A DNA stretch of 10,073 bases from Deltaproteobacteria bacterium TL4. Lineage in GTDB: Bacteria > SAR324 > NAC60-12. Below the pieces are notes generated by a model, which saw only the letters and a list, made by a program, of their open reading frames with translations, had not been told where the DNA came from and ran no database searches. Both the position numbers and the translations under genes were made by a program. The stretch spans positions 1-10,073 of the forward strand of contig JBBCAX010000394.1 in the NCBI GenBank assembly GCA_051382335.1, written 5' to 3'. Shown piece after piece: positions 1 through 9,832 of the stretch (positions are counted from its first letter, which is position 1; every line of letters begins with the position of its first letter).

Positions 1-207
1 GTTCAGGATTGGTACGGTGAAAATTATTACTCACAAAGTCCTTCAACGAACCCCCGTGGACCGTCCAATGGCTCGATCCGTGTCAACCGCGGCGGTTGTT
101 GGGGCAGCTTCGCCTGGGACTCGCGTTCGGCGATTCGTTCCATCAACTCGCCCGACGACCGGTTCCACATCTACGGGTTTCGGCTCGCCTTCTCCCCAGG
201 TCAGTAG
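1..207 (+). CDS. 3' end (68 aa, 5'-truncated by window) of an FGE-sulfatase/SUMF1-domain (CLec-fold) protein; probable DGR target
   Basis: Frame +1 reads VQDWYGENYYSQSPSTNPRGPSNGSIRVNRGGCWGSFAWDSRSAIRSINSPDDRFHIYGFRLAFSPGQ*, TAG at 205-207. DWY..YY..SP..NP.GP..G..RV.RGG.W...RSA.R...GFR is the characteristic FGE-sulfatase C-terminus. Not in the ORF track. Confidence 0.93.
   Translation, partial: VQDWYGENYYSQSPSTNPRGPSNGSIRVNRGGCWGSFAWDSRSAIRSINSPDDRFHIYGFRLAFSPGQ
61..195 (+). other. Putative DGR variable repeat (VR); boundaries approximate
   Basis: 45 consecutive codons have no A at position 3 and ~64% GC (86/135), versus 45% in 1-60. The variable positions between conserved RGGxW/RSA/R/GFR residues are mostly NNC codons, as expected from mutated AAC template codons. 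Confidence 0.7.
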
Positions 208-224
208 GAGGGCAGAGGTAGAGA

Positions 225-306
225 GGAGTTGGGAAGCGTCCGCGCCGGAACGGAACGGAGCGAGGGACGAGCGGAGAGGAGAGGAGGTCGGAGGTTTCCC
301 AACTCC
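225..306. repeat. 18-bp inverted repeat (stem-loop/cruciform) just downstream of the putative VR gene
   Basis: GGAGTTGGGAAGCGTCCG (225-242) pairs with CGGAGGTTTCCCAACTCC (289-306) at 16/18 positions, with the outer 11 bp perfect. The 46-nt loop is purine-rich. Confidence 0.85.
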
Positions 307-355
307 GAGTCAGTGGGAAAAACTTATCTAAAAGTCTATAGAAGCGAGAAAACCA

Positions 356-8428: not shown

Positions 8429-8662
8429 ATGCTGGCTATCCATAAACAATTTGTTACCCATGAAACTGGAACTCCGATAGCAGTGTTAATCGACATTCAG
8501 ACTTTTGGGCAAATTGAAGCGTTGCTCAAAAAAAACATTTCTGAGGAGGTTTCTATTCCTGAAACCAAGGTGAGTCCTGAAGATTTTGAAATTTTAAATC
8601 GTCATGCGGATGCGATTAACCAGGAAGCTCAGGATGTTCTGGAATATCAGGTCGCCCTATGA
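8429..8662 (+). CDS. Small acidic antitoxin-like protein (77 aa), apparently orphan
   Basis: Strong RBS. N-terminal QFVTHETGTPIAVLIDIQTF and C-terminal DFEILNRHADAINQEAQDVLEYQ both resemble type II antitoxin segments (from recall). Confidence 0.6.
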   Translation: MLAIHKQFVTHETGTPIAVLIDIQTFGQIEALLKKNISEEVSIPETKVSPEDFEILNRHADAINQEAQDVLEYQVAL

Positions 8663-8765
8663 AACGATGATTTATTGAGAATAAAGTCTTTATAAATAGA
8701 CGCTGCCTCTGGAAGAGGTGGCATTGAGTGAATCAAGGGAATTCCTTCTTTGTACAAAGAGTCTT

Positions 8766-9005
8766 ATGTATTCCACCTATCATTTACAAGCTGATGAACT
8801 AAATGAACAATTTTTGAAAAGTCTTCAGATCTTGTTTCAAGGACAAGAGCTGGAGATTGCGGTCCAAGCTTGCGATGACACCGAACATCTGATGCGTTCA
8901 GAATCGAATCGACAACACTTGCTCCAATCCATCGCTCATATAGAATCTGGGAAAAATCTGGTTGAAGTGAACCTTGAGGACTATGAACAGAAAGATTCTT
9001 TTTGA
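8766..9005 (+). CDS. Antitoxin partner of YoeB/Txe (YefM-like C-terminus, non-Phd N-terminus)
   Basis: DDTEHLMRSESNRQHLLQSIAHIESG matches the YefM/Axe toxin-binding helix (ETxYLLRSPxNxxxLxxSI). Overlaps the yoeB start. ATG 8766 is preferred to GTG 8718. Confidence 0.8.
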   Translation: MYSTYHLQADELNEQFLKSLQILFQGQELEIAVQACDDTEHLMRSESNRQHLLQSIAHIESGKNLVEVNLEDYEQKDSF

Positions 9006-9258
9006 ACAACAAGCCTTTGAGGATTTTACTCAGTGGTCACAAGAACAACTTCAGATTTTTCAAAAAATTCTTCGGTTGGTCAGGGAAATCAGTCGTGAGC
9101 CTTTCAAGGGAATTGGAAAACCCGAACCCCTCAAAAATCAGCTTCAGGGATACTGGTCTCGCAGAATTACTGATGAACACAGACTGGTTTACAAGGTTAC
9201 AGAGGAAACTTTAATCGTGGCAAGCTGTCGCTATCATTATCCTAAAAATCCTCCATGA
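8983..9258 (+). CDS. yoeB: Txe/YoeB family type II toxin (ribosome-dependent mRNase)
   Basis: AFEDFTQW, PFKGIGKPEPLK, GYWSRRITDEHRLVYKV and SCRYHY are hallmark YoeB motifs. Confidence 0.96.
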   Translation: MNRKILFEQQAFEDFTQWSQEQLQIFQKILRLVREISREPFKGIGKPEPLKNQLQGYWSRRITDEHRLVYKVTEETLIVASCRYHYPKNPP

Positions 9259-9525: not shown

Positions 9526-9832
9526 GGGGTTGCATCAAACTTCGGCCACTAAGAGATTGTAAAAATCGACAGTAGTCTCGGTGTTCGTCCCGAGGAACTA
9601 CGGGAATACAATGATTTTCCTGATACCAAACTAAAGGCTGCCAATATTGGGCTACTGGCCTAAGACGGGACAGTTATCATTTCAGTAGGTTGGGTAGAGC
9701 GGCAGCGAAACCCAACATCCAGGCAGTGATGTCCATTTTTCGTTGGGTTTCGCTGCCGCTCTACCCAACCTACGTTTTTGTCCCGCTTTAGACCCGAGGC
9801 CCGATATTGTGGCCGAACTTAGATGCAACCCC
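9526..9832. mobile_element. 307-bp non-autonomous IS derivative (MITE/MIC) with 24-bp TIRs and 8-bp TSD; possibly IS1595 family, IS1016-like
   Basis: Left TIR GGGGTTGCATCAAACTTCGGCCAC (9526-9549) and right TIR revcomp GGGGTTGCATCTAAGTTCGGCCAC (9809-9832) match at 22/24. Exact flanking direct repeat AACTTCCT at 9518-9525 and 9833-9840. No transposase. Confidence 0.92.
9685..9773. repeat. GTAG-family REP doublet (REPIN): perfect 32-bp inverted repeat, 25-bp spacer
   Basis: GTAGGTTGGGTAGAGCGGCAGCGAAACCCAAC (9685-9716) has its exact reverse complement at 9742-9773. Each arm starts with GTAG and has an internal GTTGGGT/ACCCAAC hairpin. Confidence 0.9.

Follow-up and report, generated by a model that had tools for sequence, protein, structure and literature searches.

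The window, a stretch of 10,073 nucleotides from the genome of Deltaproteobacteria bacterium TL4 (G000), is the start of contig C394, and the gene with which it opens is therefore cut. The 3' end of this gene (1-207, plus strand), truncated by the contig start and closed by a TAG codon at 205-207, encodes 68 residues matching in frame +1 the FGE-sulfatase family PF03781 of Pfam (E 6e-7, profile positions 189-254 of 255). Frame +1 had been preferred in the original prediction to an ORF located at 17-331, and the Pfam match supports the choice; the other ORF, equally open in a related gene on contig C302, has been discarded as a shadow frame. The gene end is followed by a non-coding element, by a tail similar to REP/MITE repeats and by ktrB. 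Further downstream, at 8429-9258, a small ORF separates a RelB-like antitoxin from a YoeB-like toxin.

A variable repeat and its template

Codons located at 61-195 have a GC content of 0.637, and none of the 45 ends in A, versus 5 of the 20 codons at 1-60. These figures had drawn attention to the region, and were exactly reproduced upon recomputation. Third-position A has a frequency of 0.25 in the long ORFs of the genome, which has 43% GC, and no stretch free of it was found among 30,177 non-overlapping windows of 45 codons taken from the same ORFs (binomial probability 2.4e-6). Searching the genome by BLASTN with window 1-300 yielded three strong matches beyond self, located on contigs C302, C3 and C207. 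The C207 match (G000:C207:13077-12948, minus strand, 130 nt) is the template repeat (TR). It is non-coding, is preceded immediately upstream by two stops in the frame of the variable repeat (VR), is rich in AAC (13 of 43 codons), and lies beside an RT remnant. Of the 24 mismatches distinguishing window 70-199 (plus strand) from this TR, 21 fall at the 36 template adenines (hypergeometric p 8.4e-12), and three, at 96, 122 and 190, at other bases. These data identify window 70-199 as the variable repeat of a DGR whose TR is hosted on another contig.

A diversified VR with a non-adjacent TR had been predicted, and this is what was found, with two amendments: homology to the TR stops at 199 and begins at 70 and not at 61, and the AAC-rich copy beside the RT remnant, expected to differ at adenines only, differs also at the three positions above. 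The NNC codons listed as diversified (103-111, 118, 139-147, 157 and 163-174) are all present. Codons ATT, TGT and TGG had been traced to AAT, AGT and AGG, and the real TR carries AAT, AGT and AGG opposite 133, 97 and 115, respectively; 30 of the 32 residues specified in the reconstructed template peptide agree with it. Variation concentrated at third positions, which would have spoken against a VR, was not seen, as the 21 adenine-site changes involve 11 first, 9 second and 1 third codon positions. Ordinary divergence or positive selection among FGE-domain paralogs, with no retroelement involved, is hardly credible, since the 23 FGE-sulfatase matches of the genome, which could suggest it, account neither for an AAC-rich non-coding copy beside an RT remnant nor for the adenine specificity of the changes (p 8e-12), 20 of 21 of which are at codon positions 1-2.

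The pairing is specific, because among six other FGE-type TRs of the genome only that of contig C153 matches the window, with 20 non-adenine mismatches over 113 nt, and has been rejected as donor; TRs on contigs C387, C156, C133, C58 and C208 do not match the window at E<=1e-6, and were similarly rejected. Three VRs are paired with the C207 TR. In addition to that of the window, the C302 VR differs from the TR at 20 adenines and 3 other positions, and the C3 VR at 17 adenines and 2 other positions, with one 2-nt deletion. Non-adenine substitutions are described for 23% of DGRs by Wu et al. (2018, PMC5758913). Among 104 related TR-VR pairs, a set restricted to pairs with 8 or fewer non-adenine mismatches, 67 are free of them and 8 carry at least three. 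A-to-T changes make up 33 of the 58 changes in the C207-family VRs, while T and G are found 786 and 807 times, respectively, in 104 related VRs. The excess in this small sample could stem from a bias of the RT or from selection favoring aromatic residues.

The GC-rich 3' end of the repeat, past the last AAC run (175-199, plus strand), is a putative IMH by analogy with the DGRs described by Wu et al. (2018, PMC5758913): no A-to-N change is found 3' of 173, and similarity of TR and VR is lost past 199. The VR occupies the C-terminal end of a CLec-type domain (PF03781 189-254/255), as in DGR targets. In formylglycine-generating enzymes (FGE) the catalytic site includes two cysteines located after an RGGS motif. 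Both are displayed by the FGE chain aligned to the C302 domain, and the pair is absent at the corresponding VR codons in the window and in C302. The product is plausibly a surface or periplasmic ligand-binding protein, and not a formylglycine-generating enzyme.

Target copies and the 3' element

The first 75 nt of the window are identical to a gene encoding PEGA domains and an FGE domain (G000:C302:95-1411). This identity is shorter than the commonest overlap between contig ends (127 nt, found at 79 of 300 ends from 150 of the 445 contigs), and has not been counted as independent evidence. Within the repeat, window and C302 differ at 21 of the 36 template-A sites and at 2 of the 94 others (Fisher p 1.2e-12), and the differences alter 16 of 43 residues. 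In the 121 nt past the repeat only two substitutions and one 4-nt indel were found. Because differences are concentrated at template adenines and flanks are nearly identical, diversification came after duplication. When compared with PDB structures, the C302 domain matches best Treponema TvpA (2y3c, E 2.3e-36). The C3 target gene features a hydrophobic signal-like N-terminus. The window retains the C found in the TR at 184, and C302 and C3 have T; this single base is possibly a non-adenine marker that the VR has taken over from its template close to the 3' boundary.

It is very improbable that the window contig and C302 represent a single locus in two strains, differing in VR allele and downstream DNA. 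In favor of this, the contig opens with the 75 nt shared with C302, and the upstream part is found on no other contig. However, the DNA past 320 is unrelated in the two contigs, ktrAB in one, a PEGA fragment and a RAYT-like gene in the other, and the contamination estimate of the assembly is 2.6%. The VR call would stand even so. The window has also been considered as the 3' exon of a second, intron-interrupted C302 copy, and this was rejected, as unrelated sequence precedes the intron and no linking contig exists. The RAYT-like (Y1_Tnp) gene, at G000:C302:1962-2621, is located between the two PEGA-FGE copies of C302; an 81%-identical Y1_Tnp gene at C414:22362-21684 adjoins a frameshifted, DGR-like RT piece.

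A non-coding 3' element (208-320, plus strand) is common to the three targets of the family and to a target of a Desulfamplus MAG (L018), where it sits between the target and the HRDC gene. Identity to the window is 95% in C302, 84% in C3 and 79%, over 96 nt, in L018. The element includes a long stem (225-306, plus strand) with arms at 225-242 and 289-306 and a purine-rich loop, a candidate target-recognition hairpin. The stem folds as DNA with a z of -3.1, and one of 200 shuffles folds equally well. When the structure derived from the window is imposed on the four related sequences that make up the set, 95.6% of cells pair, against 34-63% in slid controls, and 5 of 17 pairs have changed on both sides. 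In loci hosting 90 distinct related VRs, the 130 nt past VRs fold better than those past TRs (median z -2.8 vs -1.5). A purine-rich motif, picked after seeing the window, follows 52 VRs and 12 TRs out of 90 each, and is found on the opposite strand in 8 of 90, the 90 loci being not independent. The stem-loop region (225-320) may resemble plasmid single-strand initiation or primosome-assembly sites. It may be suggested, though we hold it to be rather unlikely, that HRDC-type DGRs lacking Avd mark their targets by a long stem with a purine-rich loop of the GAGCG/GAACG type, portable with the gene 3' end, and that copies landing at REP/MITE repeats would at once become remote targets. Were this true, the 3' stem-loop would provide a handle on a poorly studied class of DGRs.

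The tail of an abundant REP/MITE-like repeat (316-341, plus strand) is the junction past which similarity to C302 and C3 is lost and the ktrB region starts. Its motif is found in 29 copies on 26 contigs, and the module was plausibly inserted before ktrB via recombination at the repeat. A terminator-like hairpin, found after the C3 element, is missing in the window, and transcription might possibly read through from the target into ktrAB. The target had been assigned to a housekeeping locus. This was not borne out, as the target module ends at the repeat tail, just before ktrB. The ktrB gene of the window has no match at E<=1e-40 in the 44 family genomes, and window DNA 1-330 has none in 60 relative genomes.

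A damaged cassette, probably split over two contigs

The RT remnant on C207 corresponds to residues about 248-334, the last 87 or so, of P0001, a 334-aa protein from an NCBI record labelled SAR324 cluster bacterium. P0001 is the closest intact RT, being 89% identical over the remnant. Loci hosting P0001 relatives, 80 from genomes and 80 from metagenomes, are organized in the order FGE target, HRDC, RT, TR. Close P0001-type RTs are absent in 87 other genomes of the phylum, in which the two matches at E<=1e-60 are only 41-42% identical. Exact degenerate patterns of this TR/VR family gave no match in collections of genomes, metagenomes and viral contigs; a phage context was not found, one pattern giving no match among viral contigs.

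Avd had been predicted as accessory protein. HRDC genes, which are intact in relatives (PF00570), were found instead in 72 of the 80 related genome loci, and Avd in none of the 80 by three queries, of limited reach because two Avd types of the genome do not detect each other. Avd may be provided in trans: PF22296 (Avd) was identified at some place in 4 of 5 relative genomes, and not in the genome of L018. HRDC is reported in 14 of 372 DGRs, about half of which lack avd, by Wu et al. (2018, PMC5758913). HRDC-type DGRs with no adjacent avd are common in the clade spanning L018 to L097, with two or more per genome in several Desulfobacterota MAGs.

Contig C3 hosts a target, the 3' element and, at the contig end, half a MITE; the other half is found at the contig end of C207, before the start of HRDC. 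The two halves share one 9-nt flank, and flanking sequences continue the HRDC start as in relatives. Among 19 orphan left ends only that of C3 matches the C207 flank at 9 of 9 positions, five others matching at 8 of 9; the join is weakened by the AT-rich nature of the flank and by the preservation of a perfect flank in only 4 of the 11 intact copies of the MITE. The joined contigs have the gene order of relatives, target, HRDC, RT, TR. Judging from these junctions, C3 and C207 likely represent one cassette split at a MITE. A partial copy of the same MITE is found at window 9647-9802, beside a PIN-domain fragment.

All components of this cassette are damaged. The cis target on C3 carries three frameshifts. 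The HRDC remnant on C207 has the MITE at its start, a stop codon and a truncated end, and does not encode a working accessory protein. A deletion of 940 nt, relative to both L018 and L019, joins HRDC to RT residue ~248, and thus no intact cognate RT is left. The motif G.PIG...SQ marks DGR RTs. The P0001 motifs of the catalytic region, at 179 and 211, have been lost with the deletion. An assembly artefact is unlikely as its origin, since the short similar A/G-rich words of HRDC and RT that meet at the junction are far shorter than the 127-nt overlap usual in the assembly. The C207 TR has A at position 91, where all 133 related TRs covering the site have G (out of 141 TRs found in 160 loci). The RT-TR spacer is 142 nt long and includes an 88-nt palindromic insert, while 36 of 40 relatives have spacers not exceeding 35 nt; distances were measured from the RT stop in C207 and from the match end in relatives. 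No second copy of the C207-type RT or TR was found in the 445-contig assembly.

Two locations had been envisaged for the cassette, upstream of the window or elsewhere, with the window as a remote target. The second fits: C3 provides the matching cassette with a cis target of its own, and this cassette sits on contigs other than C394; the assembled cassette is not upstream. Ongoing diversification is not supported, as the assembled cassette cannot work.

Donor template, present state and known systems

Position 122 is C in both intact targets, window and C302, and T in the C207 TR and in C3. Template-A sites flanking 122 on both sides differ between window and C302. If cDNA synthesis proceeds from the IMH end toward 5' (Wu et al. 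2018, PMC5758913), the donor base at 122 would have entered one of the copies, or both. The donor therefore carried C122, and the assembled TR in its present form was not the last donor. The comparison points to the C207 TR in a former state, or else to a sister copy now lost, as the probable donor. The 8 non-adenine differences found across the three VRs are, without exception, C/T transitions, as would be expected of drift once the system had been inactivated.

We think it probable that the window VR has been rewritten in trans by an HRDC-type DGR and is now frozen; the target is likely frozen because the assembly has no matching cassette other than the broken one. TR RNA would have been copied by the cognate RT with adenine-specific errors, the cDNA taking the place of the VR starting at its IMH end. 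The gene end and the 3' stem-loop would have been copied as a module to the site beside ktrB, at the repeat tail, and the window and C302 copies rewritten in trans after duplication. The cassette would then have decayed, with target, HRDC, RT and TR all damaged, leaving the window target frozen. Against a frozen target, three non-adenine mismatches are a high number, found or exceeded in 8 of 104 related pairs only. In the three VRs and the damaged cassette the succession of duplication, diversification and decay can still be read.

Alternatively, the window may be a live remote target, served by an intact sister HRDC-RT-TR (with G91 and C122) that is missing from the assembly and possibly lies upstream of the contig start, the C3-C207 cassette being a redundant dead duplicate. 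We see this as possible, though clearly less likely. C122 is common to both intact targets, the two remote VRs have retained open frames, unlike the cis target, which is broken, and an intact RT 89% identical to the remnant (P0001) is present in the NCBI SAR324 cluster record. Families of TRs in multiple copies occur in the genome, and a missing sister cassette is plausible in an assembly of 445 contigs, because another family has three near-identical TRs on small contigs or near contig ends. Long reads revealed intact variants of degenerate loci in a case described by Doré et al. (2024, PMC10907252). However, RT residues 1-247 were not found in the assembly at >=60% identity, except for one 15-residue match. 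No second TR copy was found either, and the assembly is rated 100% complete and retains 1-kb contigs.

It is very unlikely that the RT-less C207 template remains in use with the help of a different DGR RT, preserved intact in the same genome. Contig C153 does host an intact target-HRDC-Avd-RT-TR locus (21 adenine and no non-adenine mismatches), and the core of the C207 TR is nearly whole. But the C153 RT is merely 39% identical to the cognate type, A91 of the TR is found in none of the three VRs, T122 is missing from two, and the palindromic insert is located directly 5' of the C207 TR.

The mechanism is already known, and the window is a fresh example of a remote or orphan CLec target in the setting of a damaged cassette. 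Its VR is recognisable from the codon pattern alone, and would be missed by annotation pipelines requiring an adjacent intact RT. According to Wu et al. (2018, PMC5758913), no class of targets outnumbers CLec1/FGE (71 of 372), 45 of 372 DGRs have targets that are not adjacent, and the Treponema denticola DGR is assigned to the HRDC-containing 'architecture C' and to the CLec1/FGE-sulfatase 'category b'. The window family resembles the latter in the C-terminal FGE-type CLec VR, as denoted by the TvpA (2y3c) match, in the HRDC accessory gene, in the presence of remote targets, and in targets that have outlived the core cassette (Nimkulrat et al. 2016, PMC4891356). HRDC is described as located between TR and RT in T. 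denticola, whereas the window family is organized as target-HRDC-RT-TR, with no detectable avd. In contrast to T. denticola, moreover, the C302 copy has PEGA domains and the RT clade is nearest to Desulfobacterota MAGs.

Several DGR classes per genome, loci degraded by MITE-like elements, and targets diversified in trans or before disruption are features shared with Thiohalocapsa PB-PSB1, in which trans activity is also described (Doré et al. 2024, PMC10907252). Host lineage and N-terminal domains are different, being the latter a signal peptide or PEGA in the window family. PB-PSB1 has one complete locus per class, and its activity was shown by reads, whereas the window family has no complete locus assembled. 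In Bordetella phage BPP-1 a hairpin downstream of the VR aids homing (Guo et al. 2011, PMC3240598), and there too an inverted repeat is found, the stem of which is kept while sequence varies. The BPP-1 element is 24 bp long and is located right after the VR, unlike the window stem, which has 17 pairs, starts about 25 nt past the repeat and surrounds a purine-rich stretch of about 46 bases. In the literature searched, neither a DGR from SAR324 nor one associating PEGA and FGE-sulfatase domains was found.

The genome hosts four template families with assembled targets, corresponding to the TRs of C207 (3 VRs), C153 (1 VR), C156/C58/C208 (4 VRs) and the DUF1566-like C135 (7 VRs). With at least 15 VRs in these families and two target-less templates, it is added to the genomes comparable to Thiohalocapsa PB-PSB1. 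The intact-looking C153 locus (L017, G000:C153:1089-6066) encodes an 849-aa target with four PEGA domains and FGE, followed by HRDC, Avd, RT and TR; VR and TR differ at 21 adenines, and at no other base. The three FGE-type TRs found on C156, C58 and C208 are near-identical, and their four VRs are dispersed on C60, C166, C54 and C69, with 0-3 non-adenine mismatches, and 3-nt indels in two. The RT of this family is represented only by pieces, located at contig ends or carrying deletions. The TRs at G000:C133:37040 and C387:1666 have no matching VR in the assembly. An internal RT deletion, with the TR kept, is found in each of the C387, C208 and C207 cassettes, and repeated loss of RT may be a common route to DGR shut-off.
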